Source of the DNA: a virus
Virus record (IMG/VR): IMGVR_UViG_3300000234_000002
Span: 19,958 to 83,957 of that record
Length of the DNA: 64,000 nt
Direction: 5' to 3' (one strand)
The translations under genes and the position numbers were made by a program. The notes beneath the pieces were generated by a model. It was given only the letters and a program-made list of their open reading frames with translations. It ran no database searches and was not told the origin of the DNA. The first letter of the stretch is position 1. Each line of letters begins with the position of its first letter. Positions 9,730-28,632 of this stretch are shown in pieces.

Positions 9730-11487
9730 TTACATAGTTTTCAGCCATCTGACTTTTTTAAGATTTTCTTCGACTCGAACTAAACCCGCGTCCTTATAAA
9801 AATCATTCTCTGACATGTGGGAATTTTTTGCCATATCCCAAACTGTTTTCTTATTTATTATTCTATTATTTTCAACATCTAAATAGTGATATGATGGCGG
9901 AGATTCACCAAGTTTAGTCCAATTCGAAGCTAAATATATGGTGCCGTTATCACCAACATTAGGATCCGAATAACTAACCACAGCTTTGATTTCTTTATTA
10001 TTTATTTTCAAAAGCTTCAAAAATTTTCTTAAGGAAAAGCTGCTCAAATTCTTCAGATGATAGCTTGGATGAACACAAAATCTTCTAAGTTCTCTTATAT
10101 CTTTCGGACCGAATTTGGACCCGGTTTTATCATTAATACTTTTTATTGTTTGATTTCTACCAACTCCGCTGAAAGCAGATAAAACAACAAGTTTCCCATC
10201 AAGATATCCACCATAACATGTAACAACTGAACCTAAATTCCCAAGATAATGGTATAAAGAAAGGAATTCGTGGGCTTCATGATTTGGGCATTTTTTGAAT
10301 TCAATATTTTTAAGCTCAAAATCAAAAGACTCGGACTCCTTATGATATAATTTATTATCAAGAATTTTGGAGAGCTTGCCTAAGTGGATTTCGTGTTCAT
10401 AAATCCAAAGAAGTTTGTGATTCGTATTATTCTCAACATAAGAAGACTTCGACCTATCACGAGGATTACCAAAGTATCCATACTCTTTAAAATTGTGAAA
10501 ATAATCACCCTGGCACTCTATGAGCAAATTATGATCTGGAAGGAAAAAGTCAAAAGAGTAAGGACCTATATTATAATTATGATGGTAATTTACTTTATAC
10601 CTGTTTTCAAGCAAACCCATAACAATTTTTTCAGTAGAAGGAATTTTATTACTTGATCCTGGAATCGATAAAGTGCATTTTACTCCATATTTTCTTTCTA
10701 AAGTTTTTACAGTTTTTGCTCTTTTACATTCTTTTTTATTGCAACACAAATCTTCATATTTTTCAGTATATTTAGAAAAAGATAAGTCAAACTGAGATTT
10801 ACAATAATCACATAAAGCGCAAACTTTCTTAGCTGTTTTGAAATTTAAAGATTCGACATCATACCCGAATTTTTCTAAAGTTTCCTTTGCAAGTAAATTC
10901 GGGTTTAACTTTGGTTTTGTTCTCTCAATAAAATCTTTGTGGAATTGACTTTTAGATACGGTTTGATCTTTATAAGATGAAGATAAAGCGTCACATTTTT
11001 TACAAGCACCATTAACAGAATTCGTTATATTACACATTTTTGTTTCAAAAGTAGAATCACAAAATTCACATTTAGCTATAACATTTTTCCTAGAAATTGG
11101 TTTTATATTTGGATAAGAATACCCATATTTCATGTATGTTAATTTATTATCCATATTGCGATATGGTACAGAGTTTAAAAATAAAAAATAGCTTCTCTTA
11201 GAATGAGTAATTTCTAAATTTTCATAATCTTCGGAAATATTTGAACAACTTTGACAATTTTCTTTTAAACAAAACAGGCATTTCTTTTTACTTTTGAAAT
11301 AAGGAATGTCTAAAAGGTTTGTGGAACCATATTTCTTTATAAGAGTTTCCTTGTTTCTATTTAGCTTAACAAGATCTTTATCTCTTGATTTCCAAACTTC
11401 ACAATTCTTAAAATGTCTTTTTAAAGTAGAAGACGAATTCGCCCCCCAACCACATAAACAATGGTGGGAGGCGAATTTTTCAGTCAC
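9730..11487 (-). CDS. Zn-finger + Vsr/DUF559-like endonuclease + Mom-like GNAT fusion (free-standing homing-endonuclease-like)
   Basis: Multiple CxxC; FDFFLPDHNLLIECQGDYFH nuclease motif; C-terminal FLSLYHY..ELRRFCVHP..SYSD..GTIYLASNW. Confidence 0.75.
   Translation of the reverse strand: MTEKFASHHCLCGWGANSSSTLKRHFKNCEVWKSRDKDLVKLNRNKETLIKKYGSTNLLDIPYFKSKKKCLFCLKENCQSCSNISEDYENLEITHSKRSYFLFLNSVPYRNMDNKLTYMKYGYSYPNIKPISRKNVIAKCEFCDSTFETKMCNITNSVNGACKKCDALSSSYKDQTVSKSQFHKDFIERTKPKLNPNLLAKETLEKFGYDVESLNFKTAKKVCALCDYCKSQFDLSFSKYTEKYEDLCCNKKECKRAKTVKTLERKYGVKCTLSIPGSSNKIPSTEKIVMGLLENRYKVNYHHNYNIGPYSFDFFLPDHNLLIECQGDYFHNFKEYGYFGNPRDRSKSSYVENNTNHKLLWIYEHEIHLGKLSKILDNKLYHKESESFDFELKNIEFKKCPNHEAHEFLSLYHYLGNLGSVVTCYGGYLDGKLVVLSAFSGVGRNQTIKSINDKTGSKFGPKDIRELRRFCVHPSYHLKNLSSFSLRKFLKLLKINNKEIKAVVSYSDPNVGDNGTIYLASNWTKLGESPPSYHYLDVENNRIINKKTVWDMAKNSHMSENDFYKDAGLVRVEENLKKVRWLKTM
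11436..11478 (-). terminator. Imperfect GC-rich hairpin just after the sheath gene, overlapping the 5' end of the next ORF
   Basis: AATTCGCC...GGCGAATT arms with further inner pairing; weak U-tract. Confidence 0.4.
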
Positions 11488-11500
11488 TTAAACTTTACAC

Positions 11501-14500
11501 TTAGGATCTAACGCGGACACTCAAAGTGGCCACGATGTATTCAAGCGGAAAGACCGGGACGTAGATAGCAGATACTCTGAGTATCGTTGGGTCGTTCTCG
11601 TCAGAAGCCACCTCAATACCAGCAACGGAAGTAACGATTTGCTGATCGATCAGAGTGGTGAAAGCGCCACTAATGGCGGTCTCAACGCTCTTGATGAGGT
11701 TACCGGTTAACTTCTGTCCGATGTAAGGGTCGAGAACCTGACGGAGAACCTTCTGTACGTATTGGATGGTAAGGACGACCGAAGGAGTTCTCGTGAGAAC
11801 CGAGTCAACGTTCGTGGTAAGAGCGTGTCGAACTCTGAGACCAGCCTGAACCTGCTCAATGATCGTTACGCCGTTAACCGCGATTTGGTTGGCTTCAGTC
11901 GGGTCAAGAACTCTTCCGATTCTTCGGAATCCCTGTATGGACCTTCTGGTAAGAGGGCTGGCGACATCAAAGGTCGGATTACAGGTCGAGGCGGCGTAAG
12001 CAGCGGCGGCGTAAGTTCCATCAACGAGTTGATCAACCAAATTACCAAGAGAATCCTGGACCGAGATTACGAAAGAGTCAGGGTAAACGACAGTTACGAG
12101 TTCCGAGTTCAAAGATCTTGCTATGGACTGAACTCCAAGAGGAGAAGTTCCGGTAGCAACACCAACAACGCCAGTACGCTCGCCCTCCTGACGAGGAGCG
12201 CTCATGAACACACAGTGCTGGTTGAGGTAACCAAACACCTGAGTATTCGAAGTCAGAGGAATAACGACGTCAGCAGGGGTAGAACCACCAATCTTCTTTT
12301 TCTGCTCATCAATTGCAGAGATGTAAGCAGAAACCGGAGCTTGGCTGCTATTGGCGGATCTAAAGACTTGCTTGAGACCAACAACAACGGCACCGTTCAA
12401 CTGAGCTATGCGAGCCGCGAGAGAAAGAGGACTATCAGGGGTCGGGGATCCGAAAGCCTGAATTATCTTCTTCGAGTCTCTGTAGAGCTGAGTCGAGATA
12501 TCGCTCTTGGCGTAGTCGTAGGAAATGTAGTAAACATCTCCTACCTGGGGCTCAATACCAGATCTATCGTAGGTTCTCACCAAGGAAGTCGTTCCAGGAT
12601 TCATATTGAATGTGTTGTAGACTGTGAGTTCTACACCATTCACTGCACGAATCGGAAGCGAAGCATCGGTTACGAAAGTCTGGTTAACTACGAGAGTGAA
12701 GCTTCCTCCGCTCGTATAATCACCAGAAGACGCCGGGAGAACCGTAAATCTCAGGCCCGTGGTCGAATCCGTGTAGGTCTGACCAGGGAATCCAGTTCCG
12801 TGAGAACCTAAGAGACCCTGAGAAGAAGCCACAGTGAATCCGGACTGAGCATTCTCACCAATATCGCCCGAAGATCCAACAACAATCCCCAAACCAGTGT
12901 CTTCAATCAGAGCCGAGTTGGCAACCGAACTGAATGCAACGGTGGAGCTGTTTCCAGTAGATCTGGAATTGACGGTCAGGTAATTTCCGAGACCCTGGAC
13001 CGGAACTTGGTAAGCAAAAGCCAAGCTGGAGAAAGAAGAATTTGCGTTTAACGCGTTAGCGATTTTCTTGGCAGTCGGCTGACTTCTCTGAACCGTGAGA
13101 CCGGGCTCAAGACCGAGAACCAAATTCGCGTTACCGGAGGTCTTGATGGTTATCAACGAGTTTACGGTGTTGATTCTGGAGGTAAGAACCAATTTACCGC
13201 TATTGATTCCCTGGCCGGTTCTCGCAACGAGTTCGTTGAGGAAGAAAGCGGAAGGGTTGGTCGTGTCGTTGGTGCCGTGGACGTGGTAGATTCCCTGAAT
13301 TTCAGCCAAGTGGAGAGGATACTTGGTCTGGAGTTCAGTAGTAAGAGTTATGAGAGTACCAGAGTTGGTCGCGTTCGCCGAAGTGATGTTGTTGGTTACA
13401 TCATCAACAACGTGAACACCGGACTGCAGTAAGTGAAGATTGAAGTCGGCCTTAAGCTCATTCGCGAGAGCAAGGGCGGTAGGACTGTCAACAGCATTGG
13501 TGGCTGTGATTATGTTGACAGTATCACTCGTCAAGTGAGCAGAAGCCAAAACGCGGTGAGCGTTATATTTGGCCTTCAAGTCATTGAGGATTGGGTAGCA
13601 GTCAGATTCAATAACCGGCGCCGACGCGGGGGTCAGAGTATTGGTTGCGTCGTCCTTACCATGAACGCCACGCTGCGTTAAGTGGAGATTGAACGCATCT
13701 TTGAGATCATTGGCGAGTCTAACAGCAGTAACCAAATTCGAAGCGTTAGCAGTTGTTACGACATTCAGAGTGTCGTCGAGCTGATGGATACCAGCTTGAC
13801 TCAAGTGAAGATTGAACTTGGTCTTTATATCATTTAAGAGCGTTAGAGAGTCACCAAGCGTAACGGCAACAGGCGCCGATATGGTGTTAACGGCATCTGC
13901 TATGACATGGAACACAGTAGAAACTCTGTGAGCTTCATACTTCGTTCTAAGGTTGTTGGCAAGAGCGATGACATCAGCCGTGTAAGTCGCAACATCGGCA
14001 GCCGAAGCATATTCGATGTAGACGTCGTTGATGGAAGTTACGACGTCATTAAGCGTTACAGCACTTCCAGACGGAATGGTGGCAGTTACGTCAACACCGT
14101 CAACGTTGATTTGGACGGAATCATTGACTCCGGCAGTCACATTGTACGGCGCCGTCTTGGTCGCGACGTAAGAAGCAACCTGATTTATGGAGTTATAAGA
14201 ACCCTGAGCGCTTGCGTTCGGAGAAAGACCAATCTTGGTCGATCCATCAGTCTGTCCAGATCCAGTCGGAGGAAGAACGAGAACAGAAGAAACGAGACCA
14301 TTGGTGAACGAAGGAACGCTTCGTCCACGAATCACGATGGCGTTTTCTGAACCGTAAGAAAGGACCGAGGCCAGAGCGTTGGGAGCGGAAGAAAGGAACG
14401 TTCCGGAACCGTCCGCGTGAACCTGAGTGTCGGCATCGACCGCAGCGTTTATAGCTGTAGCAACGTCCGAAAGAGTCGTAGCAGCCGAAATGTCGATGGG

Positions 14501-16552
14501 AGCAAGGGTAATCCCGTCGATCACAAGAAGCAATCTGTCAGTCGACAATGGAGTAACCGAAGCTACCGGATTACCCAAAAGAAGGGCTCGGAATGCGGTA
14601 GAAAGGTTAACAGTTACCGGTGCATTTCCGTCGATTACTACGCCACCAAAGTTCTGGCTGTAAGCGTAGATGTCGTACGGCTCCTGCTTCCCATTAGAGA
14701 AAGAAGCGTGGGTCGCGGGATTCAACGCGTTAGAGAACGTGACCGTGACGGTCTCCGAAGTCGGATTTCCGGCTCCAGTGTGGATGACGTCAGGAGCCTG
14801 TTCAGAGCCGGAAGGCCACTGAATGGTTTCAGGAAGGCCGGATTTGGTTCCGAACTTGGTTCCGTAAAGGTTTACGCCAGTGAGAGCGGAAGCTATCGTG
14901 TAAGTTCCGATAGAAGAAGGTCCAGGAGTCACAACGCTGAAAGTATAGGTATCATCTACTATTCTGTTATACCAGAAAGTAGCGAAAGCCTTATAATCAG
15001 CAGGAACCGGGCTCTTCAACGTGACTGTGTTGTTAGTTCCGTCAACTTCAGTCACAGCTACAGGAGGTCTGGAACTGGCATCTCTCCAGTTCTTACCAAC
15101 ATGAACTATGACAAGATCGGGTCTGTTGGTCGGAAGGTCAATTCTTCCGTTCGTAACAGTCTGATAAAGGGAGACACCAAGGGGCGTATCTCTACCATTT
15201 CCAGTGGTGGGGGTCAGGGGAAGAACGAACTTGCTCGTAGAAACCGAGTTCAAAACCGGATCTACGAATCTGGAGCACTCAGAACCATAAACACGATTAT
15301 CAACAAGCAAACCAACTATTTGGGTGCTGTTGAAAGCGGTATTTCCAGTCTGAACGCCGGAGGAAACGTTGAAAGTCGCCCCCCACTGAATTCTTGACTG
15401 ATCACCATCATTGGTAACAACGAAATCTTGACCATTGATATAATCACGACGACCCGGACCAATTCCGACGTTCCCAACATTCACAATGTTGGTATTCGGA
15501 AGGTAGTCAAAAGTGTCTTGGAAAGTATTGAAATAATAGGTGATGTTGACAGTCGAACCGTCAGTCGGAGCGAACGGGAGAGTCACCAAGCTATTAAGAC
15601 CGTCAACCGACGATGCAATAACAACCTGTCCGTTCACCAAAACGCTAACCTTCGTAATGTCAGTCGTTATGATTCCGCCATCGGAACCATCAACAATAGG
15701 ACCTTGGAAGGTTCTGAAAGACTTGTTGCGGGAAGTGGAAACTCCGGGATTAAACCCGAAAACGCCGTTGGCATTTCCACTACTTATCGTTATATTCCCG
15801 GCAGCGGTCAATCTGACGTGATTCAAGCCGTCAGCATCAACGTGGATCGAAGCAGTCAAACCGGTGATGTTAGCAGCGTTGACGTCATTAGCAACATCCG
15901 CAGCAGGACGGCTCGTACCGGCGGTTAAATTGACAGAGTAGGTGGTGAGATCGTTCACCACTAAAGTGAGAGTGTCGTTGGTTCCCGATACAACAGAGTA
16001 AGGCTCAGCTTTGGGAGCGGTAAGAATAGCAAGGCCAGCGCTTATTTGCTGGGAAAGATTGTCAGTTATTCTTACGTCTTTTCGGTGGAAGAAATAATTA
16101 ACAAGAACAACATCATCTTCATTCGGTGGAACCAAGATGGTCACCAAGCCGTTTACGCCGTCGACGGACGAAACTATAACAGACTCGTTATTGACAGTAA
16201 CAGAAACCTTGGTAACATCGAACGTGGTGAGACCACGACCCGAACCGTCCACTATAGGAACGTTTCTTACCTTAAACTGAGTTTTGGAACCATCCTGGTT
16301 ACCTAAAACAGGGTTTGAAAGAGTTCCACCAGAAACCCATCTACCAGTAACGTCCTCACCAAAAATGGGAGTATCAGCTACACTGCTGGAACCTCTCACC
16401 ATTTCATAGTTGGATTGCGATAAGGTCTCCTTACCGACACCGATAAGAACGGGAACTCGAATTCCACCAAGGTTCTGAGCCGCAGAGGGATCAGCAGAAG
16501 TAGAAACAGTCACACCAGGAGGAGTGTAGGTGGGGAAGGGACCAATCGCCAT
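11501..16552 (-). CDS. Contractile tail sheath protein, very large with inserted domains
   Basis: N-terminal YTPPGV, C-terminal DENDPTILRVSAIYVPVFPLEYIVATLSV typical of sheath; 1683 aa; AAAGGA SD. Confidence 0.88.
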   Translation of the reverse strand: MAIGPFPTYTPPGVTVSTSADPSAAQNLGGIRVPVLIGVGKETLSQSNYEMVRGSSSVADTPIFGEDVTGRWVSGGTLSNPVLGNQDGSKTQFKVRNVPIVDGSGRGLTTFDVTKVSVTVNNESVIVSSVDGVNGLVTILVPPNEDDVVLVNYFFHRKDVRITDNLSQQISAGLAILTAPKAEPYSVVSGTNDTLTLVVNDLTTYSVNLTAGTSRPAADVANDVNAANITGLTASIHVDADGLNHVRLTAAGNITISSGNANGVFGFNPGVSTSRNKSFRTFQGPIVDGSDGGIITTDITKVSVLVNGQVVIASSVDGLNSLVTLPFAPTDGSTVNITYYFNTFQDTFDYLPNTNIVNVGNVGIGPGRRDYINGQDFVVTNDGDQSRIQWGATFNVSSGVQTGNTAFNSTQIVGLLVDNRVYGSECSRFVDPVLNSVSTSKFVLPLTPTTGNGRDTPLGVSLYQTVTNGRIDLPTNRPDLVIVHVGKNWRDASSRPPVAVTEVDGTNNTVTLKSPVPADYKAFATFWYNRIVDDTYTFSVVTPGPSSIGTYTIASALTGVNLYGTKFGTKSGLPETIQWPSGSEQAPDVIHTGAGNPTSETVTVTFSNALNPATHASFSNGKQEPYDIYAYSQNFGGVVIDGNAPVTVNLSTAFRALLLGNPVASVTPLSTDRLLLVIDGITLAPIDISAATTLSDVATAINAAVDADTQVHADGSGTFLSSAPNALASVLSYGSENAIVIRGRSVPSFTNGLVSSVLVLPPTGSGQTDGSTKIGLSPNASAQGSYNSINQVASYVATKTAPYNVTAGVNDSVQINVDGVDVTATIPSGSAVTLNDVVTSINDVYIEYASAADVATYTADVIALANNLRTKYEAHRVSTVFHVIADAVNTISAPVAVTLGDSLTLLNDIKTKFNLHLSQAGIHQLDDTLNVVTTANASNLVTAVRLANDLKDAFNLHLTQRGVHGKDDATNTLTPASAPVIESDCYPILNDLKAKYNAHRVLASAHLTSDTVNIITATNAVDSPTALALANELKADFNLHLLQSGVHVVDDVTNNITSANATNSGTLITLTTELQTKYPLHLAEIQGIYHVHGTNDTTNPSAFFLNELVARTGQGINSGKLVLTSRINTVNSLITIKTSGNANLVLGLEPGLTVQRSQPTAKKIANALNANSSFSSLAFAYQVPVQGLGNYLTVNSRSTGNSSTVAFSSVANSALIEDTGLGIVVGSSGDIGENAQSGFTVASSQGLLGSHGTGFPGQTYTDSTTGLRFTVLPASSGDYTSGGSFTLVVNQTFVTDASLPIRAVNGVELTVYNTFNMNPGTTSLVRTYDRSGIEPQVGDVYYISYDYAKSDISTQLYRDSKKIIQAFGSPTPDSPLSLAARIAQLNGAVVVGLKQVFRSANSSQAPVSAYISAIDEQKKKIGGSTPADVVIPLTSNTQVFGYLNQHCVFMSAPRQEGERTGVVGVATGTSPLGVQSIARSLNSELVTVVYPDSFVISVQDSLGNLVDQLVDGTYAAAAYAASTCNPTFDVASPLTRRSIQGFRRIGRVLDPTEANQIAVNGVTIIEQVQAGLRVRHALTTNVDSVLTRTPSVVLTIQYVQKVLRQVLDPYIGQKLTGNLIKSVETAISGAFTTLIDQQIVTSVAGIEVASDENDPTILRVSAIYVPVFPLEYIVATLSVRVRS

Positions 16553-16606
16553 TTGAAATTCTTCCTTTAAAAAGATTTTATGTATTTAGTAAGTATAAAG
16601 TATCGG

Positions 16607-16638
16607 TTTTTGGTTTCAGTATTACCTGAAACCAAAAA
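16607..16638. terminator. Inverted repeat, probable intrinsic terminator
   Basis: TTTTTGGTTTCAG-6 nt-CTGAAACCAAAAA perfect 13-bp arms, intergenic. Confidence 0.65.
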
Positions 16639-16669
16639 TTCATAAGGAGACTAAAATAAAAAAGAATAG

Positions 16670-17080
16670 CTACTGCTTAGCTTTATTGTATAAATTTATT
16701 GCTTTATTCCTAATTTCTAATGTGCTGCTATCGGCCTTCATAAGTTTGCCGTCAGGTGTCTGACTAAGAGAATTTGTTCCCAAACTCTGTCTTATTTTCG
16801 ACCTCTCAGCTTTTTGCTGTTGTATCTTCTCCCACTTAGACTTTGAAGATCTACCAACAGCTTTATCTAAAGAAGGATAGTCAACATCATGGACTCCGCT
16901 ATTTCCGACGGTCCCACCTTTAAAATTAAAAGAAACCAAACTCACCATTTTTCTGGGAGATGAAGACGTGCAAATCGGACAAGGGTGTTCGGTTTTATAC
17001 TTTTGAACATTTTCAGAACCCATTATTAGTTCTTCAAATAAATTTCCACATTCGTGACATTCATACTCATAAACAGGCAT
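16670..17080 (-). CDS. FmdB-family zinc-ribbon protein
   Basis: MPVYEYECHECG...FE...CPIC signature. Confidence 0.8.
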   Translation of the reverse strand: MPVYEYECHECGNLFEELIMGSENVQKYKTEHPCPICTSSSPRKMVSLVSFNFKGGTVGNSGVHDVDYPSLDKAVGRSSKSKWEKIQQQKAERSKIRQSLGTNSLSQTPDGKLMKADSSTLEIRNKAINLYNKAKQ

Positions 17081-17091
17081 GTAAAACTATA

Positions 17092-18578: not shown

Positions 18579-18727
18579 TCAAGATATTACATTCGTAAAT
18601 TCAAAACTATTGAAGCGATATATCAAGAAAATGGTGAAAAAGTAAAGCCAAACCAAAACTCGGCTTCACACTTCATGTTGATAAATGGGTGTAGTATATA
18701 AATTTGGGTATAACTTCGGACACTGAA

Positions 18728-18776
18728 ATTTTGCGTGCAACTCGCCCTGTGGAAAACAGCGAGTTGCACGCAAAAT
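18728..18776. terminator. Perfect 18-bp inverted repeat immediately downstream of cassette 3
   Basis: ATTTTGCGTGCAACTCGC (18728-18745) / GCGAGTTGCACGCAAAAT (18759-18776). Confidence 0.7.
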
Positions 18777-18784
18777 GGAGTTAA

Positions 18785-19141
18785 TCACTCACGGGTACTG
18801 GGATGACCTAACTCTTCTATCATAGACATAATAATTTCCGTCTCTTCTTCCTGGTCTATATCCCCATCACTTTCACGAACCCAATCCGCATCTCTACCAT
18901 CTTTTTCAAGGCTTATTTTATAAGTGTGCTCTTGCCCATCAGGAGTTTGGCTTGTGACTCTCCACTCTTCCCATCTGGGGTCTTCCTCAGGAAGAACTTC
19001 TTTTTTCAATATGGGGGAGTTAGCGATCTTTTTTACAAGACCCTTTATGGCTGACGCGACCTTCGTCTTATCAGGCGTCTTCGACGCCTCGATAGCGGCA
19101 GCAATTTTTCTTAGCTCAGTGGCAACTTGCGAGGGCCTCAT
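18785..19141 (-). CDS. Leader-cassette protein 3: 40-aa leader + highly acidic 78-aa domain
   Basis: ATG at 19141 with GGAG upstream; payload has about 23 D/E versus 9 K/R. Confidence 0.8.
   Translation of the reverse strand: MRPSQVATELRKIAAAIEASKTPDKTKVASAIKGLVKKIANSPILKKEVLPEEDPRWEEWRVTSQTPDGQEHTYKISLEKDGRDADWVRESDGDIDQEEETEIIMSMIEELGHPSTRE
19022..19141 (-). repeat. 120-bp dispersed leader module, copy 3
   Basis: Direct sequence comparison. Confidence 0.95.
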
Positions 19142-19164
19142 GAAAACTCCGTGATATAAAAAAC

Positions 19165-20175
19165 TCAATCGCTCATTTGAGCGGCAGTGTGGAGACCGAG
19201 AGCAACAGCGTGCATAGGGTCAGATGCCTGTCTGATTTCCGATATTTCAATCGGAAATTTTGACTTCTTGGATTCAAAGATTTCAGTAAATTTATCCATG
19301 AAGCCCGAAGCCATGGAAGTTCCGCCAGAAACAATAATGGGAATGGGAGTGGAAAGAAGAAATTCAGACTTTGCTCTATGAAATTGAGAAATAATCTTAT
19401 CTATTGTATATTCGATAAGATTAGAAATGTAGAAAGAAATCGCTTCAGCTTCTCTTCCCCTTGGGTTCAAGATGTTAACCCCCGACTCTTTAATATGACA
19501 AGCCTTCGAAGCTGTGATCCCTAAAGCACTTGAAGCTCCAGCATCAATCCAATCACCACCTCTCCCGAGCGAGAATTCCAAAGCGCTCATCGCGTTGTAT
19601 GACAAACAAACATTTGTCATACCAGATCCATATGATATCCCAAGACCGGAGAATTTTGTGGATGAACCTTCGGAATAAACTATAGCGAGCGCTTCATTAA
19701 CTGGCTCCGGGTCGTAACCAGTTTCTTGGATTATCTTTTTGAGAATGCTGGTGTGATAAATGGTATTGGAACCGGCAATATCAATTGCCGGGGCCGGAAC
19801 AGAGAAACAGCATTTTTCGTTCGGGGACTTCGGCTTCCCGATGAGATTGTTAATTATAATGGCGATGACTTTCTGAGCCTCAACTTCACCGGACGAAACA
19901 ACACCGCCTGCGAGGGGTCTGCGGATTTCTTTGTTGAAAAGATTCGCAGAAGCTAATGCGTCATCACCAATAACATAAAGAGAACCATCAATTTCTACGA
20001 AAGCAGTGTTGCTGAGCTTGAGCATCCTCTTGTGCTCAATAGGCAAATCAAGGAAAGCATCCCTAACTCTTTTAATGGAAACTTTCTTTTCTGAACTTCG
20101 TGCAGCCACGAAGTTCATAGTTCCACAGTCTAGACCAACACCAAAGATTTCGTTTTTAGACATTTCGATAATCAA
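19165..20175 (-). CDS. Actin-fold ATPase (MreB/MamK/ParM-like)
   Basis: Phosphate-1 GLDCGT, connect-1 VNEALA, phosphate-2 SYGSGMT, adenosine IIVSGGTS, DPMHAVALG. Confidence 0.85.
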   Translation of the reverse strand: MIIEMSKNEIFGVGLDCGTMNFVAARSSEKKVSIKRVRDAFLDLPIEHKRMLKLSNTAFVEIDGSLYVIGDDALASANLFNKEIRRPLAGGVVSSGEVEAQKVIAIIINNLIGKPKSPNEKCCFSVPAPAIDIAGSNTIYHTSILKKIIQETGYDPEPVNEALAIVYSEGSSTKFSGLGISYGSGMTNVCLSYNAMSALEFSLGRGGDWIDAGASSALGITASKACHIKESGVNILNPRGREAEAISFYISNLIEYTIDKIISQFHRAKSEFLLSTPIPIIVSGGTSMASGFMDKFTEIFESKKSKFPIEISEIRQASDPMHAVALGLHTAAQMSD

Positions 20176-20197
20176 GTTACATCAAAGTTTTTATTTT

Positions 20198-20725
20198 TTA
20201 ATATTTGGAATTCTCATATTCACGGAAAGATTCAGCTAAATCAGAAACTCCTGATTCTTCTAAGCCTTCAATAATATCATTTGAATGAAATGCTCCATGG
20301 GAGCAAAACCAAATAATAGTGTCTTCTTTTTGTAAAAACTCTTTCATAGAAGAATATTTTTTGAACGACTTCTGATCAAATCCTTCGACTTCATCCCAAG
20401 TTTTTGATCCAGATCCCAGGACGTCAACAGGACTACTGGATTTTAAACTTTTCGGGTCTGAATTAATAGCAACAAAAACTGAGTCAGTAAAAGCTGCCCA
20501 AATACTACCGCTAACCTTTAAACCTTCTTTCATTTCATAAACAAGGTCCATAGCAGAATAATCGCCGTTATTTATATCGATAGATACAACTGAGGGAACT
20601 TCAGATGAGATCTTTTTAACAAGACCCTTTATGGCTGAAGCGACCTTCGTCTTATCAGGCGTCTTCGACGCCTCGATAGCGGCAGCAATTTTACGGAGTT
20701 CAGTGGCAACTTGCGAGGGCCTCAT
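20198..20725 (-). CDS. Leader-cassette protein 4: 40-aa leader + acidic variable domain
   Basis: ATG at 20725 preceded by TATAAT-N4; leader ends KKIS. Confidence 0.8.
   Translation of the reverse strand: MRPSQVATELRKIAAAIEASKTPDKTKVASAIKGLVKKISSEVPSVVSIDINNGDYSAMDLVYEMKEGLKVSGSIWAAFTDSVFVAINSDPKSLKSSSPVDVLGSGSKTWDEVEGFDQKSFKKYSSMKEFLQKEDTIIWFCSHGAFHSNDIIEGLEESGVSDLAESFREYENSKY
20606..20725 (-). repeat. 120-bp dispersed leader module, copy 4
   Basis: Direct sequence comparison. Confidence 0.95.
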
Positions 20726-20763
20726 GAAAATTATAGAAAATAAAAAAATAAAAAACTCAAGAT

Positions 20764-21306: not shown

Positions 21307-21968
21307 AAACTCTTTTCTATCAGATCTCTTATGGCTGATGAAAACTCATTCGCCACTAAATCCGATACTCTATTCGCAAATCTTCCTATTATACCTTCAA
21401 GTTGTTTAGACTTGTAAATGAATTCTTTATTTTCAGCCTCATACTCCTCTTTGCGGGCTGCCATATAAGAGTTAGATTTAATTATTAACTTGCCTTGCCT
21501 AGTAAGAAGCATAGACTTAGGGGTCGCACTAATTTTTCTTTTAAAGTCACGGTGAGATGAAGTCTCTCTGGCGTCAAGAACCCTTCGGCGCCCATCATTC
21601 AATCCATCGCCGTAACGCTTTCTAGCGTCAACGGCACCGTAACCTCTTCTCAGAACTCTCTGAACTCCGCCTAAAGGCTTTTTTCTGAAAGTTTTGTCGG
21701 GTTTCGGCTCTTCCTCTTCGTCAGATTCTTCTACTTTTATATCAGAGTTTTCTAAATCTATGCCCTCGATGTCAAATACTATCTCGAATTCTATTACATT
21801 ATTCGTTATATTAGCTAAAACTTCATAATGTTTTAAATGTTCAAATTTGGTAATACCTTCGGACACCAATAATTTATCAAGCAAATCAATGCCATCCTTA
21901 GCTATTTCTTCAACTATTGAAGAAATAATCTGTTTTGAAATTTGGAGGAGTGATTTCTCGATGCTCAT
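21303..21968 (-). CDS. Hypothetical protein (morphogenesis cluster)
   Basis: 221-aa ORF, ATGA overlap with upstream gene. Confidence 0.65.
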   Translation of the reverse strand: MSIEKSLLQISKQIISSIVEEIAKDGIDLLDKLLVSEGITKFEHLKHYEVLANITNNVIEFEIVFDIEGIDLENSDIKVEESDEEEEPKPDKTFRKKPLGGVQRVLRRGYGAVDARKRYGDGLNDGRRRVLDARETSSHRDFKRKISATPKSMLLTRQGKLIIKSNSYMAARKEEYEAENKEFIYKSKQLEGIIGRFANRVSDLVANEFSSAIRDLIEKSL

Positions 21969-23284
21969 CTACGGTAAGTATTTTCAAAAGTTACAGTGTT
22001 ACCACGAAATTCACGTTCATCAGGGATAGCGGATCTTTCCGAAACCATAGGGTTCGAAGAACCTTCACCCGGAATAGTGAATCTTGTTTGAGGAGAATAA
22101 AGACGGGAAGTATTTATAATAGGAACTTTACTTCTTATATCTTGTTCATCAATGTGTGATATTATAAAAAACTGCTGAAGTTGCATGCCTCTAGCAGTTG
22201 GCATTTTAACCGAACCTATCGAATATCTGTCACCATTCAATTTTAAAATGAAATCCCTTTGAGACAATAGAGGTGAAGGACTAGTCCAAGTATCTTGTTC
22301 GTGTGATAACGTCTGTCCCCTATTTGTTAATTTATGAGCTTTATTTGAGTCATCGGGAGCTATTATTATATCGTAAGGACCGTCGTAACCACCTATGAAT
22401 CCGGTGGCGTAGCAAAGTAAACAATCAGATTGCGGCTGTCTATGCGTAGAAGAATAACAACCACATCTAATTCCAAAATTCTTTCGAATATAAACTTTTA
22501 CCCTTTCCCCACCTTGGTAGAGAAGGAATTTATTCCTTCTTACAGCTTCTCTCCATATCCAGTCAAGCTGTTCAGTTTCGTAATTATTGGATATAGCTGA
22601 TTTACTGAGTGAAGTTTCAACTTCATTACCACTAGAATCAACACAAACTGAAGTTAGTCTATAATACACTCTCTGCCCCATGTTAGTTTTCACAATATTA
22701 TTTTTATAACGATAAGTTGCTAAAACAACACTATTTTCATTCGGGACTACTGGAGGAATAGGTTTTTGGGAAACAGGATCAAAAGAACCATAATTTCTTA
22801 TTTGAACTTGACCAGAAGTTGAGTCTATGGAATCTATGGAAGCCACAACACCATCAATTGTGACGTAAACATTAAGGCTAGCGCAGTCTGCTTCACCAAG
22901 CCAAGGCTGGATGACGATCGGTTTGTATCTAGTTTGAAAAACCCATTGGGCATCAGGGTCAGTAGTTCCCTTATATACAAATGAGTTCGATACATCTTCT
23001 TCCAAAGAAAGAGCGGTAATAGTTTCGTCTCTCCAAAAGTTACTGCAAACCGGAATTAAATTTAATTTTTGAAAATCACCATAAGGAGAATCGAAAGCCC
23101 TATAAATATTAACGCCTATTATTTGGAACCTGGAATTTTGAAATAAACTTGACGGGTCATCCCATCTTAAATCAATAATTCCAGGTTCAAGACCAGACTG
23201 ACAAGAAAAATTCAAAGGAGGTAAAGGAGAGGCCGAATAGTCCTGTTCCAGTATATGGGGAGGTCTATCAGCAGGAGCTGGCAT
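21965..23284 (-). CDS. Putative neck/head-closure protein with FN3-like N-terminus
   Basis: PPLNF..IDLRW..GVNIYRA FN3-like start; CGC...CLLCYATGFIGGY metal motif. Confidence 0.5.
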   Translation of the reverse strand: MPAPADRPPHILEQDYSASPLPPLNFSCQSGLEPGIIDLRWDDPSSLFQNSRFQIIGVNIYRAFDSPYGDFQKLNLIPVCSNFWRDETITALSLEEDVSNSFVYKGTTDPDAQWVFQTRYKPIVIQPWLGEADCASLNVYVTIDGVVASIDSIDSTSGQVQIRNYGSFDPVSQKPIPPVVPNENSVVLATYRYKNNIVKTNMGQRVYYRLTSVCVDSSGNEVETSLSKSAISNNYETEQLDWIWREAVRRNKFLLYQGGERVKVYIRKNFGIRCGCYSSTHRQPQSDCLLCYATGFIGGYDGPYDIIIAPDDSNKAHKLTNRGQTLSHEQDTWTSPSPLLSQRDFILKLNGDRYSIGSVKMPTARGMQLQQFFIISHIDEQDIRSKVPIINTSRLYSPQTRFTIPGEGSSNPMVSERSAIPDEREFRGNTVTFENTYRR

Positions 23285-23317
23285 AATAAAAAGATTTAAT
23301 CAAGAATTGAAACAAAT

Positions 23318-23599
23318 TTAGTCTTCTTCGACTAAGACGTGAAGTGAATATCCACCGTTTTCACCAGGTTCAACCGATAGTCTTTGTATTTTAGATTTAT
23401 CGAGGTCCTCATCGGACAAAACCTTCTGGACAGTTTGAACCTTAGCCTGATTAATGGTTTTTATTCTTGCGTCGAGTTCGTCGAGTTCATGCTTACGACG
23501 AACATACTCAACGGACCAATGCGTCAAAGATGCATCATACTCGGATATGCGGGTGAGGGTCTCGCCGGAAAGAGGAAATTTTTTAGTAACCATAGCCAT
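23318..23599 (-). CDS. Hypothetical protein
   Basis: 93-aa ORF. Confidence 0.6.
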   Translation of the reverse strand: MAMVTKKFPLSGETLTRISEYDASLTHWSVEYVRRKHELDELDARIKTINQAKVQTVQKVLSDEDLDKSKIQRLSVEPGENGGYSLHVLVEED

Positions 23600-23858
23600 A
23601 AGGAATAATACCAGGCTTAAATGTGATTTTTAACTCTAAATTATCCGCCGAAGCATAATGTCTATCAAGTCCGTATTCGTTTTTCGTTATATTAAGAGCT
23701 GACTCTACGGCAGCTTCTATTTCAAATTTAAGTTTTTCTTGGAGAGCATTCTTATCAACATCGCCCGAAAAATGAACTTCGAAAGATAGACTACCTTTTA
23801 TAAAATATTGGTTGTCGTCTTCACTGGCGATCTTAGTGGCAATTTTACCAAAATTCAT
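23583..23858 (-). CDS. Hypothetical protein with KIA-type N-terminus
   Basis: MNFGKIATKIASEDDN... Confidence 0.65.
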   Translation of the reverse strand: MNFGKIATKIASEDDNQYFIKGSLSFEVHFSGDVDKNALQEKLKFEIEAAVESALNITKNEYGLDRHYASADNLELKITFKPGIIPYGYGY

Positions 23859-24033
23859 AAAACATAATGAAAATTAAAAGAATAATACATGAAAATTAGT
23901 TATTAACTGTTAATTTAATCAACGCAGACTCTCGTCGAACACTATGACTAATGCCACATTGTCTCGTACAAGTCTTCATCATTTCACGTATAATAATGAT
24001 GCTTTTTATAAAATATTGGTTGTCGTCTTCACT
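23796..24033. repeat. Exact 30-bp direct repeat (23796-23825 and 24004-24033)
   Basis: TTTTATAAAATATTGGTTGTCGTCTTCACT twice; on the minus strand it encodes SEDDNQYFIK. Confidence 0.9.
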
Positions 24034-24376
24034 AGCTTTTGCTTGCAATTTTAACTTCATACTGAAATTCATTGCTACCATCCCAATACATCAGAATATC
24101 TCTTAATAGATCCTCATCACCAACAACATTCTCTAAAACACCATTTTGTAATTCATCAGTTGAAAAAATTGCAGAGTGTGATTCACCACCACACTTTGCA
24201 GTTATGAAATCAACATCACCTTCTTCAATTTTCACATCATAAATTTTTGTCTTTGTAGCGATCTTTTTTACAAGACCCTTTATGGCTGAGGCGACCCTCG
24301 CCTTATCAGGCGTCTTCGACGCCTCGATAGCGGCAGCAATTTTTCTTAGCTCAGTGGCAACTTGCGAGGGCTTCAT
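24032..24376 (-). CDS. Leader-cassette protein 5: 40-aa leader + acidic 74-aa domain
   Basis: ORF begins exactly at the leader ATG; TACAGT-N4-ATG upstream. Confidence 0.8.
   Translation of the reverse strand: MKPSQVATELRKIAAAIEASKTPDKARVASAIKGLVKKIATKTKIYDVKIEEGDVDFITAKCGGESHSAIFSTDELQNGVLENVVGDEDLLRDILMYWDGSNEFQYEVKIASKS
24257..24376 (-). repeat. 120-bp dispersed leader module, copy 5
   Basis: Direct sequence comparison. Confidence 0.95.
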
Positions 24377-24399
24377 GTTAACTGTAAAGAATAAAAAAG

Positions 24400-26190
24400 T
24401 TACAAATCAAAGAAATACCTATGTTTAGGCGGAGTATGTACTTTCTTATAACCGAGTTTTGAAGCACACTCAGCTTCCTTCATGTTGTTTTTCTTTGCGT
24501 ACCCATATAAAGTTTTCTTATTTATTTCTTGACCCGAATCATTTTCATAAAAATAACTTCTAGTTGTTTTACCATCAAATGTCCAATTTGAAGCTTGATA
24601 TATGGTTCCTGAATGACCAAATCTCGGATCAGCAAATGACACCAATTTTTTGACTTCGGGATAATCGGATTTGAAAAGCTTAATGACTTTAGACATTGCA
24701 TATGATGCGAAGTTTTTCTTGTGATATGAGGGATGAATGCAGAATCTGTCGAGTTCCATAACTTGGTCATTATTGAGTTTAAACCTAGGGGCGATACCCT
24801 GGCGAACTGGAGGAGCAAATTTAGCGACCCCGACAATCTCCCCATTAAGTTTAAATAAATAAACATGGCTAGAATTTCTACCAAAACCCCCATAATGAAA
24901 TTTATTAAGAAAATCCCGGATACCGTCTTCGTGTTCAAGAATTTTGAATTTGACGGAATCGAACTCGAAGTCTTTGAGTTCATGTGATTCTCTATCTGGA
25001 TTACGATAGGTGGGGGTTAAGATGGATTGATTTGTAGTCTTGTGAATACAAGTTCCACCGTTTTCATGTTTACTATAATTGCAGTTGAAACATAATATTT
25101 GATATTCTTCTTTGTTAAGCAACCCCCTTGATAATTTGGATAATATATCAACGCCTGATCCATCGCCTTCTTCTCTTTTCAAACTCCCATCATTATTGAT
25201 ATGGTCGATGCAAAGATGAGTTAAATCGTCATCGCCGCAACAAGCACATTTACCACCAAAAGACTTTAAAATACTGTTTATCCTATCACGTTTCACAGAC
25301 ATGACACAAACAAGGCACCTATTTTTCTCATGGGATGTTTGGGAGTTAAAAAAAGATAAATCTTTTTCCTCCCCACAAAGATTGCAAGTTTTACTTATTC
25401 CGAATGTTGGTTTATTAGATAGATGGTGTACAGGGTTTACTCTATATTTACTAGAATTGCAATTGTGACACATCGTTTGGAAATCATGATGATCGAGTTC
25501 ACCGAGAAGAATTTTCCTTTTCCAACCTATGGAACCATGAACTCTATGTAAATGACCATCATTATTTTTATGATCTGTAGTTAAGAACCTTGGTTCAGAT
25601 TCACCACAAATAACGCAAACGTGACCTATAAGTTCAAATAAAGACTGTTTAACCAGTTCTCTATCGAGTTTTGACTTTTCAGACACATGTGATGAATTCT
25701 TTAACCTCCATTCCTTTTGTCGTTTAGTGATAGTTTCTTTATTCTTCTGTTGATATTCAACTTTCCGTTTAATTATTCTTTCTCTATTTTCAGCATAATA
25801 CGCATGCTTTTTTTCTATGATCGATTCTTTATTATTCAGATAATAATTCCGGCTACTCTCTTGTCGAGCTTCAATATTTAATCCAGTGACTTCTTTATTT
25901 CTTTGCCTCCTACAAATTTTGCACTTTGCATCATGACCGTTAGCTTTTGCGGAATTTTTAAAAAATTCAGAAAGTGGCTTTTCGATATCACATGATTTAC
26001 ATGTTTGCGTAGTTAATTCGTCAACTACTTTTTCTTCGAGTTTCCTTTTATTTAGTTCAAGATAATTATCATTTATTGCTTTTCTGCACGATTTGCACTT
26101 AACATCGAGACCATTACGATTAGTTCGAATCTTAAAAAATTCTGAAAAACTTTTTTCGGCCCCACAATTTTTACAAACCTGAGTGTCCAT
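24400..26190 (-). CDS. Zn-finger + tandem HNH endonuclease + Mom-like GNAT fusion
   Basis: CxxC...F...CxxC repeats; two CxxCG..DH.NNDG..CxNCN domains; FLNKFHY..ELDRFCIHP..SFADPRFGHSGTIYQASNW. Confidence 0.78.
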   Translation of the reverse strand: MDTQVCKNCGAEKSFSEFFKIRTNRNGLDVKCKSCRKAINDNYLELNKRKLEEKVVDELTTQTCKSCDIEKPLSEFFKNSAKANGHDAKCKICRRQRNKEVTGLNIEARQESSRNYYLNNKESIIEKKHAYYAENRERIIKRKVEYQQKNKETITKRQKEWRLKNSSHVSEKSKLDRELVKQSLFELIGHVCVICGESEPRFLTTDHKNNDGHLHRVHGSIGWKRKILLGELDHHDFQTMCHNCNSSKYRVNPVHHLSNKPTFGISKTCNLCGEEKDLSFFNSQTSHEKNRCLVCVMSVKRDRINSILKSFGGKCACCGDDDLTHLCIDHINNDGSLKREEGDGSGVDILSKLSRGLLNKEEYQILCFNCNYSKHENGGTCIHKTTNQSILTPTYRNPDRESHELKDFEFDSVKFKILEHEDGIRDFLNKFHYGGFGRNSSHVYLFKLNGEIVGVAKFAPPVRQGIAPRFKLNNDQVMELDRFCIHPSYHKKNFASYAMSKVIKLFKSDYPEVKKLVSFADPRFGHSGTIYQASNWTFDGKTTRSYFYENDSGQEINKKTLYGYAKKNNMKEAECASKLGYKKVHTPPKHRYFFDL

Positions 26191-26211
26191 AGTTAACTAT
26201 ACATTAAAAAT

Positions 26212-26268
26212 TAACTGGGATAACTGGGATAACTGGGATAACTGTGTTAAAATTGGGATAAACTGGAT
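26212..26268. repeat. Intergenic 9-bp tandem repeat (TAACTGGGA)x3 plus degenerate copies
   Basis: 26212-26238 perfect x3, then TAACTG, AATTGGGAT, AACTGGAT. Confidence 0.85.
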
Positions 26269-26278
26269 GATGGAAGAA

Positions 26279-27184
26279 TCAAAGTCCAACGAATTTACGT
26301 GGAGTAAGAGTACCTCTACCAACGTTAGGACCAAACGAAGAGCGTATCCCCATGCCGTATCTTGACTGTTTAAGACCGCGCATAAACTTTACAGTTTCTT
26401 TAGCAGGAATAATCATTTCCTGGAACCGAGAATTAGCATCGTTCATAAGACCTTGGAATTTTGAACTCTTCTCTAAATCGAGTGATATGCCGCCAATAGT
26501 GTAATTAAATTCGTCTTGGATCCAATTCACCGTAAGAGCCTGAAGAGCGTAAACCATTGCACCTGTTAGAAGTAAGGATCTCCATGGTCTATACTGTGTT
26601 ATTAATTGATCCAGATTCTGAAAAGAAGTCATGGGTGGGTATATATTGATTGAATCGTTAGATACGTTCAAATATTCAAGAAGTTCACATTCTTCCCAAA
26701 CGTATCCGAAAACTCGTGTGAATTGATTGACTGACTCCTCACCAGAAGGGGGCATGAAATGGTAGTTGCGGGCCGGGTTATTATCTCTGAGAAGTATTCT
26801 GAGACTTCTTATTAGATCAAGTTCAATATTTGTAGCCCCGGCAAGGGATATAACTTGAGTTGGATCTGACACAATGGAAAATTCTTGGAGGACTTGAACT
26901 TCTCTGGCGCCGACATACTCTCTGAAGTGCCATCTTATTCTATAATTACCGATGTTGGCATCCATCGGTATGAGGAAAGAAGCATAATATTCACCGACGC
27001 TCGGGTTTACGGGTTTTCTTTTTGCTGGAGGAAGTAATATCTCAACTCCGGTCGTGTAATCATAGATGTCATATGATATTTCAGCGGCATTCTTCGGAGT
27101 TTGGTCTTTCGATTTCAAAAATAATGAAAGACCATCCGAGCGAGAAAGTTCCATACCACGCTTGAAGGCAGTCATATAAAACAA
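26279..27184 (-). CDS. Putative head-tail adaptor/neck protein
   Basis: Ig-like N-terminus then helical domain (LRILLRD...FNYTIGGISLD); call is mainly contextual. Confidence 0.5.
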   Translation of the reverse strand: MFYMTAFKRGMELSRSDGLSLFLKSKDQTPKNAAEISYDIYDYTTGVEILLPPAKRKPVNPSVGEYYASFLIPMDANIGNYRIRWHFREYVGAREVQVLQEFSIVSDPTQVISLAGATNIELDLIRSLRILLRDNNPARNYHFMPPSGEESVNQFTRVFGYVWEECELLEYLNVSNDSINIYPPMTSFQNLDQLITQYRPWRSLLLTGAMVYALQALTVNWIQDEFNYTIGGISLDLEKSSKFQGLMNDANSRFQEMIIPAKETVKFMRGLKQSRYGMGIRSSFGPNVGRGTLTPRKFVGL

Positions 27185-27222
27185 AGTTTAACTAAACTCT
27201 TATTGTAAATTCAGTTTGACCA

Positions 27223-28632
27223 ATGTCTTATAAAGTGTGTAGTATATGTAAAAAAGAACTTGAAATTACAGAATTTCATAAAGATAAGTCAAGAAAAGGT
27301 GGGTTAAGAAAAGATTGTAAAGAATGTACTAAATCTAGAAATAATCTACGTTATCAAAAGAAAAAAGAAATTGTAAAAAGTAAAATTAAAGAATATTATG
27401 ATGAAGGTGGAGGAAAGGAAAAAGAAAAAGAAAGAAATTCAATTCTTCAAGAAAAATTATTTTCCATTATGGGTAATTGTTGTAAAATATGCGGAACTGA
27501 GGAACATCTAGTAATAGATCATATTGATGGTGGTGGAAATTTAGATAGAAAGAAAACATCAAAATGGGGGTTGATAAGAAAAATACTAAGTTCAAAAGTT
27601 GATATCAAAAAGTATAGGTTACTTTGTTCAAATTGCAACATTAAAAGTCATTTTATAAATAATGTAGTTAAAATAGAGACAAAAGAAAAAACAGGGATAT
27701 TAAAAGAATGTAAAACCTGTCTTGAAAATAAAGACACATCTTTATTTCATTCACACAAAAAATATGAAGATGGTCTTTATTATGAGTGCAAAACTTGCGA
27801 TAGAAATAGGGGTCAAAATATTAAAAAGAAAGTAATGGACTTTATTGGGAATGGAATTTGTGCAAAATGTGGTGAGTCTGATATTGATAAATTATCAATA
27901 GATCATGTAACACCTGTCGGAAAAAAGAGAGAAGCTCATGGTAGTATTTTATATAGAAGATTGTTAAGGAAAAAAGAAAAGTTAGAAAATCTTCAAGTTT
28001 TATGCTTCAATTGCAACCTAGAGAAAAGTGATAAAAAACCAGTTGAATTCATCGAGTTTGAATTCATCGAATGCCAATTTAGGTACATCGATAAAGAAAG
28101 TTCAAGTTCATTTCTCGATAATTATCATTACGATGGATATGGTAGACATCAAAAATTTTCTATAGGTGTTTTCTTTGAAGATGAACTTATCTGTGTAGCA
28201 AAATTTTGTCCAGTAGTAAGACAAAACGTATCAAGTAAAACTGGTTTTACAGATTCTGAAGTTTTGGAACTTGATAGATTCTGTATCCATCCAAAAAGAC
28301 ATAAATATAATTTTGGTTCGTTTTCGATGTCAAAAATAATGAAAATGATTAAAAATGATTTCAAAGATATTGGGTGTTTAGTATCCTTTTCTGATAAAGA
28401 ACAAGGACATAATGGGTCGCTATACAGGTCATCGAACTGGAAATTTATTGGTGAAACGGAAAAAAGTTATTTTTATGAAAAAGATGGAGAAATCATAAAA
28501 AAGAAAGTTTTTTATGATAGAGCGAAGTCTAGTGGACTTATGGATAATAAAACTGAAAGAGAAGTTGCTATTGAAAATGGGTATAACATCATAAAAACTG
28601 ACAAAAAGTTAAAATTCATGTACAAACTCTAA
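27223..28632 (+). CDS. Zn-finger + tandem HNH endonuclease + Mom-like GNAT fusion (paralog of 24400..26190)
   Basis: CKICG..IDHIDGGG..LCSNCN; CAKCG..IDHV..LCFNCN; FLDNYHY..ELDRFCIHP..SFSD..GHNGSLYRSSNW; very AT-rich and opposite strand to neighbours. Confidence 0.78.
   Translation: MSYKVCSICKKELEITEFHKDKSRKGGLRKDCKECTKSRNNLRYQKKKEIVKSKIKEYYDEGGGKEKEKERNSILQEKLFSIMGNCCKICGTEEHLVIDHIDGGGNLDRKKTSKWGLIRKILSSKVDIKKYRLLCSNCNIKSHFINNVVKIETKEKTGILKECKTCLENKDTSLFHSHKKYEDGLYYECKTCDRNRGQNIKKKVMDFIGNGICAKCGESDIDKLSIDHVTPVGKKREAHGSILYRRLLRKKEKLENLQVLCFNCNLEKSDKKPVEFIEFEFIECQFRYIDKESSSSFLDNYHYDGYGRHQKFSIGVFFEDELICVAKFCPVVRQNVSSKTGFTDSEVLELDRFCIHPKRHKYNFGSFSMSKIMKMIKNDFKDIGCLVSFSDKEQGHNGSLYRSSNWKFIGETEKSYFYEKDGEIIKKKVFYDRAKSSGLMDNKTEREVAIENGYNIIKTDKKLKFMYKL

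Follow-up and report, generated by a model that had tools for sequence, protein, structure and literature searches.

Mom of bacteriophage Mu forms N6-carbamoylmethyl-adenine in double-stranded DNA (dsDNA) in a Gly-tRNA(Gly)-dependent reaction, and this modification shields the DNA from restriction (PMC13219725, a structural and biochemical study of 2026). Domains of the same family have also been described as fusion partners of nucleases. In jumbo phages, Iyer et al. (2021; Viruses 13:63, PMC7824862, section 3.4.7) reported restriction endonuclease (REase)-Mom fusions, in which the REase was predicted to be a restriction component and momylation to protect the phage, and counted five momylating enzymes in the single genome of PA5oct. 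A further group, the phage homing endonucleases of the 'Hef type', was placed in the Vsr-like EDxHD family by Taylor et al. in 2011 (PMC3239194). Here we analyse three open reading frames (ORFs), P0001, P0002 and P0003, each of which joins a nuclease head to a Mom-like C-terminal domain. They lie in the right-hand 64 kb (hereafter the window) of an 84-kb IMG/VR virus record, IMGVR_UViG_3300000234_000002 (Table 1).

The three genes are best explained as free-standing selfish genes of the homing-endonuclease type, resident in a jumbo phage and equipped with a Mom tail that is probably active and would protect the carrier. We hold this explanation tentatively, at somewhat below an even chance. 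It builds on the identities of the domains, the conservation of their catalytic residues, patchy presence at conserved sites and the repeated pairing of Mom with nuclease heads, from which we infer cleavage, homing, DNA modification and a protective role.

The three nuclease-Mom proteins are also encoded on a 322-kb contig, and relatives with terminal repeats measure 362 to 393 kb; the source is therefore taken to be an uncultured jumbo phage. It occurs in biofilm and soil metagenomes, and 20 kb of the window gave no match in a phage collection by megablast. An initial annotation of the window had placed a common C-terminal domain of ~190 amino acids (aa) at the ends of three genes. These are exact ORFs of 585, 596 and 469 aa (P0001, P0002 and P0003), and all three match the Pfam family Mom.

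The shared Mom-family tail

The matches to Pfam Mom (PF25680) have E-values of 2.2e-19 for P0001, 3.5e-26 for P0002 and 6.9e-28 for P0003, with scores of 70.4, 92.5 and 98.1 bits, respectively, against a cut-off of 27.1; all three C-termini also match PHROG 1384. In a sequence search, P0002 could be aligned residue by residue with the crystal structure of Mu Mom, 8bv8 (E 1.8e-12). The same structure was the top PDB match in Foldseek (E 1.2e-12) for an AlphaFold model of P0003, built with 19 homologues as input (predicted local distance difference test score, pLDDT, 85), with generic GNATs at ~1e-5, seven orders of magnitude behind. The motifs originally read from the domain (HY.G, EL.RFC[VI]HP, S[YF][SA]D...G..G.[IL]Y..SNW and KK) are present as described. 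Judged by sequence and predicted fold, the suspected likeness to Mom and GNAT enzymes is correct, and the shared domain is a true Mom-family GNAT that retains the catalytic core and is probably catalytically active.

The three domains were aligned with Mu Mom as taken from the Mu genome record. H58, Y59, R111, S124, D149 and Y159 are common to all four, and E108 is conserved as well. P0002 has all seven tested residues, including R151, the equivalent of which is N in P0001 and E in P0003; in Mu Mom, activity of the R151A variant was not detectable (PMC13219725). W48, which serves dimerisation in Mu Mom, and W181 are lost in the window domains. The helix-turn-helix (HTH)-like insertion of Mu Mom (residues ~175-209) is needed for activity (PMC13219725). 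In the window domains, a segment at a similar position aligns that is slightly shorter, lacks W181 and is helical in the P0003 model (H427-436, H445-451). The window domains share with Mu Mom the GNAT fold and probably the Mom-specific C-terminal elaboration. Unlike Mu Mom, a 231-aa dimer that stands alone and is controlled by Com/C, the window domain forms the tail of a nuclease.

Each of the six core residues is present in 91-98% of 99 fusion proteins, and all six occur together in 196 of 222 domains, the exceptions being mostly S124T. Among orthologues, the Mom domain (46-63%) and the nuclease domain (53-67%) are about equally conserved. A conserved core, combined with conservation equal to that of the nuclease, argues for retained catalysis over a relic that merely binds DNA.

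A contrasting possibility is that a Mom-derived domain has been co-opted for DNA binding or base flipping, where it would help the nuclease to find or hold its site, or would mark or block the cut DNA. The domain would then give the carrier no protection, and self-immunity would come from differences at the target site, as in other free-standing homing endonucleases. Such enzymes are modular and borrow DNA-binding domains, and heads with NUMOD3 and HTH modules do occur in the present family; Mu Mom itself binds dsDNA and has been modelled to flip adenine (PMC13219725). The loss of R151, W48 and W181, and the existence of relatives with an intact nuclease and a degenerate Mom core (described below), are in keeping with such a role. 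However, S124 (or T) and D149, which are catalytic rather than binding residues, are found in ~95% of the 222 domains, and the heads are already rich in zinc-ribbon or HTH modules for DNA binding. On balance, we regard co-option for target recognition as unlikely.

Unrelated nuclease heads within a broad family

P0001 and P0002 have only the Mom domain in common (35% identity over 185 aa, E 6e-29), whereas P0002 and P0003 are similar over their whole length (32%, E 1e-78). With identities of only 32-35%, recent duplication of one copy into three could be ruled out.

For the nuclease of P0001, Pfam gave no family, and searching the PDB by sequence with a profile built from 26 homologues turned up no nuclease. 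A structural model of the domain (pLDDT 77) was most similar in VIA-align to the homing endonuclease I-Bth0305I, 3r3p (Z 12.6, root-mean-square deviation 3.0, 95 of 97 residues), followed by the DUF559 structure 3hrl (Z 10.6) and E. coli Vsr, 1cw0 (Z 10.2). This clear Vsr/EDxHD match comes from VIA-align only, the result of plain Foldseek being weak (E 3e-3). D313, E324, H331 and D344 are invariant in the 26 homologues and E286 is nearly so, the catalytic residues having been putatively mapped to I-Bth0305I by their spacing. More widely, 138 of 145 Vsr-type heads have all four catalytic residues (D, E, H and D). Ahead of the nuclease, the Cys pairs C140/C143/C162/C165 and C226/C229/C249/C254 are almost invariant in the same 26 homologues, DUF4379 treble-clef matches occur among the homologues, and the N-terminal zinc-binding repeats are probably DNA-binding. 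PHROG 559 spans residues 45-549 of P0001, for which more than 55 full-length homologue clusters were found, compared with ~20 for P0003.

P0002 and P0003 each contain two HNH modules, with a zinc-ribbon ahead of each. In both modules the C..C, DH, N and C..CN positions are invariant across 19 homologues of 35-40% identity. The heads match PHROG 2255 (E 5.5e-32 and 4.9e-24) and PHROG 1035, and P0003 reaches the Pfam HNH family with 21.5 bits against a cut-off of 21.4. Having two HNH active sites per chain, such a protein could make a double-strand break without dimerising. The heads had been proposed at the outset to be of unrelated folds, and they are: Vsr/DUF559-like in P0001, and tandem HNH with DH and C..CN retained in P0002 and P0003.

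To place these proteins in a wider family, a profile built from nine Mom domains was used. At a threshold of E ≤ 1e-3 it matched 7150 representative clusters, and 448 remained at E ≤ 1e-30. Among the best 150 of the 7150 representatives, the Mom domain lies at the extreme C-terminus in 137, and the median protein length is 507 aa. The heads of these 150 are Vsr-like in 83 cases, HNH in 28 (27 of them tandem) and of other types in 32, the remaining 7 being short proteins; the other types include DUF7487 and builds that combine multiple HTH modules, NUMOD3 and an REase-like domain. A search for short stand-alone relatives of the P0003 Mom domain returned no close one other than a 199-aa protein on a 908-bp contig, which is probably a fragment. 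In a FastTree phylogeny of 228 Mom domains, a quick tree that is indicative only, head types cluster, and well-supported branches force at least four switches of the HNH label and at least six of the Vsr label. Within the limits of such a tree, these repeated switches lend support to the earlier suggestion that pairing of Mom with different nuclease folds reflects selection for the fusion.

Two further builds were encountered. At L039, L040 and L041 of one related record (G003) there is a second, more diverged subfamily of proteins consisting of an REase (MTES_1575-like), a zinc-ribbon and a Mom-like domain; they score near or below the Pfam Mom cut-off, yet H58, Y59, R111, S124, D149, R151 and Y159 are present. 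In addition, the top representative match, P0103 (874 aa), has two stretches matching the Mom-domain profile and may be a double-Mom fusion.

Comparison with described systems shows which parts of this picture are new. P0001 fits the published REase-Mom fusions, with an REase-fold nuclease, a Mom-family GNAT and several copies per genome; this form, and the prediction that it acts in restriction-modification (RM), are already in print (PMC7824862). The published text covers REase-fold heads only, without mobility analysis or experiment, whereas P0002 and P0003 have tandem HNH heads. P0001 also shares the Vsr-like nuclease core and the free-standing position beside conserved phage genes with the I-Bth0305I/Hef family. 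I-Bth0305I itself, however, is intron-encoded and has NUMOD/HTH modules and no Mom domain, where P0001 has zinc-ribbons and Mom. P0002 and P0003 have the zinc-bound beta-beta-alpha-metal motif and free-standing position of HNH homing endonucleases and T4 endonuclease VII-like proteins (T4 MobE, I-HmuI; PHROG 2255/1035/2633), but differ from T4 MobE and I-HmuI in having two complete HNH modules per chain, each after a zinc-ribbon, and then a Mom domain. No description of this tandem-HNH-Mom build was found in the searchable literature, Iyer et al. 2009 lying outside its reach, and a literature search on Mom-like/endonuclease fusions and momylation returned nothing further on such fusions.

Proteins of Campylobacter phages annotated as 'Hef-like homing endonucleases' align to residues 216-578 of P0001, covering both the nuclease and the Mom-like parts, and occur at 5-9 places per genome. 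One of them has H58, R111, S124, D149 and Y159; it does not reach Pfam Mom at E 0.05, but matches a custom Mom-domain profile at E 1.7e-10.

Patchy occupancy of two conserved sites

P0001 starts 13 nucleotides (nt) past the tail sheath gene. This gene is 50-66% identical in 28 related loci, which were retrieved with the sheath C-terminus and have a common backbone: a 402-aa gene, a 136-aa gene, the sheath gene, a variable interval and a 500-aa ATPase gene. Of 24 scorable loci, 5 have a P0001-type gene immediately after the sheath gene. Full-length homologues (41-46% identical) are found there in L006, L019, L021 and L025, and are absent from the 19 other scorable loci. On the sheath tree, this pattern requires at least four gains or losses. 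Divergence of the P0001-type genes roughly parallels that of the sheath, which indicates an old resident of the site with repeated loss or gain, and no recent arrival. The identities gave no sign that genomes with the gene had undergone co-conversion at the 3' end of the sheath gene, and a promoter and terminator scan around P0001 gave counts like those of shuffled sequences.

The near-identical sister loci L019 (gene present) and L031 (gene absent) are distinguished by an indel of 3.3 kb, which starts 55 nt past the sheath stop and also holds small unrelated ORFs; the interval is therefore a general hot spot of 1-7.4 kb. As a separate observation, this sheath-to-ATPase interval (4076-11500 in the window) is hypervariable, from 1 kb in L031 to 7.4 kb in the window, where it additionally encodes three proteins that relatives lack: an exonuclease, an HslV-like peptidase and a 597-aa LRV-repeat protein. 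The sheath gene itself is very long (1683 aa), and its GC content of 0.49, against 0.39 for the window, is skewed in the direction opposite to that of the nuclease genes.

These features of the interval bear on another explanation, in which the proteins would be weapons. As a phage-borne restriction system they would degrade host or superinfecting-phage DNA in general, momylation would protect the resident phage, and patchiness would reflect the turnover of an arms race. This is the published reading of jumbo-phage REase-Mom fusions (PMC7824862), and both the general variability of the 1-7.4 kb hot spot and the additional genes in the L019/L031 indel agree with it. On the other hand, the Vsr-type head finds its closest structural counterpart in a site-specific homing endonuclease, related proteins of Campylobacter and T4-like phages carry homing-endonuclease annotations, and the genes are met repeatedly at the same positions next to conserved genes. 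Hef of phage U5, moreover, is said to be a proven homing endonuclease. A role as a weapon therefore seems to us rather improbable.

The second site has the backbone 439-aa gene, variable interval, 301-aa gene, variable interval and ligase-like gene. The 301-aa gene belongs to no Pfam or PHROG family. A search of viral contigs with this neighbour gave no locus match, and its homologues were found only via whole-record searches; the 569-aa neighbour had no match in the five related genomes. An orthologue of P0002 (45% identical) lies directly downstream of the 301-aa gene in G003. Near the P0002 site, G004 encodes a protein with a different head (DUF7487, of Vsr type by profile), whose Mom domain shares 51% identity with its P0002 counterpart and branches inside the P0002 clade. 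The P0002 site is empty in G001, G002 and G005, and in none of the five related genomes is the P0003 slot occupied. The genes had been said to sit beside core morphogenesis genes, which is so for P0001, adjoining the tail sheath gene, but P0002 and P0003 flank the 301-aa gene, which has no family match.

Copy number also varies between related records. Three have no Mom domain (one of them complete, at 393 kb), a complete record of 377 kb has one, and a complete record of 362 kb has 8 Pfam matches and 9 fusion ORFs. The GC content is 0.303 for P0001, 0.346 for P0002 and 0.280 for P0003, against 0.394 for the window and a 5th percentile of 0.32 for 1.5-kb windows; the AT-richness first ascribed to all three is clear for P0001 and P0003 and only mild for P0002. 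Patchy sites, variable copy number and AT-richness together make the signature of a free-standing homing endonuclease gene. Mobile behaviour of this type, anticipated in the initial annotation, is thus upheld by patchy presence at the sheath (5/24) and 301-aa-gene sites, by low GC and by the 0-9 copies seen in relatives.

Several other features surround the second site. A 151-nt direct repeat occurs in three copies that are 85-88% identical (19025-19175, 20609-20759 and 24260-24410), each reaching from the region upstream of a small minus-strand ORF into its first codons. The third copy starts exactly at the P0002 stop codon and the first abuts the end of a 336-aa gene; the repeat may serve as a common leader or promoter cassette, or as a substrate for recombination. 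A 33-nt duplication (97% identical; 23796-23828 and 24004-24036, 208 nt apart) lies just downstream of P0002. The 204-aa ATP-dependent ligase-like gene (30491-31105) is on the same strand as the 301-aa gene in the window and on the opposite strand in all five related genomes, which therefore implies a local inversion adjoining the P0003 insertion. Directly after P0003, a 99-aa ORF (28651-28950) matches DUF6527 (E 5.5e-7) and has no homologue in the five related genomes; it may have travelled together with P0003.

Table 1 Nuclease-Mom genes, their domains and the adjoining candidate target genes, in window coordinates
Feature	Position	Strand	Basis and remarks
P0001, 585 aa: zinc-ribbon/treble-clef repeats, Vsr/EDxHD-type nuclease, Mom-like GNAT (Hef-like build)	9730..11487	-	Pfam Mom, PHROG 559
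P0001 N-terminal zinc-binding repeats, residues ~1-254	10726..11487	-	Cys pairs, DUF4379 in homologues
P0001 Vsr/EDxHD-like nuclease domain, residues ~255-385	10333..10725	-	VIA-align, invariant residues
P0001 Mom-like GNAT, residues ~386-585	9733..10332	-	Pfam PF25680 residues 395-562; R151 = N
P0002, 596 aa: two zinc-ribbons, coiled stretch, HNH, zinc-ribbon, HNH, Mom-like GNAT	24400..26190	-	
P0002 first HNH, residues ~186-250	25441..25635	-	Invariant motif columns, PHROG 1035/2255
P0002 second HNH, residues ~310-375	25066..25263	-	Invariant motif columns; PHROG 2255 best stretch 264-379
P0002 Mom-like GNAT, residues ~405-596	24403..24978	-	Pfam Mom, 8bv8; R151 present
P0003, 469 aa: zinc-ribbon-HNH twice, Mom-like GNAT	27223..28632	+ (opposite to neighbouring genes)	
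P0003 first HNH, residues ~80-145	27460..27657	+	Invariant C87, C90, D99, H100, C135, C138, N139 (19 homologues)
P0003 second HNH, residues ~205-272	27835..28038	+	Pfam HNH 213-271; invariant C213, C216, D227, H228, C261, N263, C264, N265
P0003 Mom-like GNAT, residues ~275-469	28045..28629	+	Pfam Mom, Foldseek 8bv8; R151 = E
Tail sheath gene, 1683 aa, directly upstream of P0001; candidate target region	11501..16552	-	PHROG 2839 E 2.7e-25
Conserved 301-aa gene between P0002 and P0003; candidate target region	26279..27184	-	65-70% identical in five related genomes

A possible cut-and-protect mechanism

If the proteins are homing-type nucleases with a protective tail, the zinc-ribbon and nuclease head would bind the DNA of a related phage, or unmodified DNA of another origin, and cut it within or close to the conserved neighbour gene; recombinational repair would then copy the nuclease-Mom gene into the cut genome. 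The tethered Mom domain would most likely add an acyl or aminoacyl group to N6 of adenines in DNA bound by the same protein, and the carrier genome, modified before cell entry, would be spared from cutting. That the tail protects its carrier from its own nuclease in this way is plausible.

The overall logic would be that of restriction-modification in one polypeptide. Single-chain RM enzymes (Type IIG/IIC, BpuSI) follow the same proposed logic, in which a nuclease and a protective modification are joined in one selfish polypeptide. They use an S-adenosylmethionine (SAM) methyltransferase, whereas the window proteins have a domain of the GNAT acyl/aminoacyl-transferase type and no shared target-recognition domain of the RM kind. 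No SAM-dependent methyltransferase domain was found in the three proteins by Pfam or Foldseek; they may work in an RM-like manner, but are not members of the RM group. In its strictest form, the proposal is that of a one-polypeptide cut-and-protect element, whose Mom domain, perhaps depending on a tRNA, would acylate adenines within the very target of the nuclease and so give the carrier instant immunity, with the tandem-HNH proteins representing an undescribed build of two nuclease centres and a protector. This stricter form is possible, if doubtful.

Several observations weigh against a protective tail. Only 11 of the 99 fusion proteins have R at the position of R151, without which Mu Mom is inactive, and with R151, W48 and W181 lost, the domain may use another chemistry or donor, or may leave DNA unmodified. 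Furthermore, in six or seven relatives the nuclease residues are intact and the Mom core is clearly degenerate (P0062, P0067, P0078, P0083, P0091, P0100), while the reverse state, non-conservative loss of the nuclease with an intact Mom core, was found in three only (P0055, P0116, P0159). Obligatory self-protection predicts that nuclease-dead, Mom-alive proteins are tolerated and that nuclease-alive, Mom-dead proteins are not, and the asymmetry of decay is the opposite, although the numbers are small and paralogues could protect in trans. The natural variants with a dead Mom domain and an intact nuclease, together with the loss of R151, count against a strict dependence of cutting on protection. 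Two considerations of a more general kind also apply: a freely diffusing modifier would protect a co-infecting rival genome as well, and the surroundings of the genes resemble a block of late structural genes, with P0001 immediately past the sheath gene.

Another possibility is that the tail is beneficial cargo. Here the nuclease would drive the spread of the gene, and Mom would modify the phage DNA, broadly or at sites chosen by the head, against host restriction, as Mu Mom does; the fusion would persist as a selfish gene that pays its way, and several copies, each with its own head, would between them reach a range of sequence contexts. For Mu Mom, anti-restriction activity is proven (PMC13219725), Iyer et al. 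(2021, PMC7824862) note that a genome with multiple momylating enzymes may get past several host systems, and the catalytic core of the Mom domain is conserved. Tolerance of a dead Mom domain next to an intact nuclease also fits a benefit that is not essential. However, complete relatives with none (G002) or one (G004) show the function to be dispensable, a search with the P0003 Mom domain brought up no close member of this Mom clade that stands alone, an enzyme serving anti-restriction only would need no nuclease, and R151 is mostly absent. We therefore see only a minor chance that the tail is cargo of this kind.

Returning to homing-type nucleases with a protective tail, the family is large, and a single experiment would annotate thousands of phage genes. 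The proteins might also find use as site-directed modifiers of DNA adenine. Were the one-polypeptide cut-and-protect element real, it could invade any conserved site without a pre-existing resistant allele. If Mom does shield the target, these genes would be RM-like selfish elements in which a hypermodifying acyltransferase takes the place of the methyltransferase, and would offer a new answer to the question of how free-standing homing endonucleases spare their own genome.

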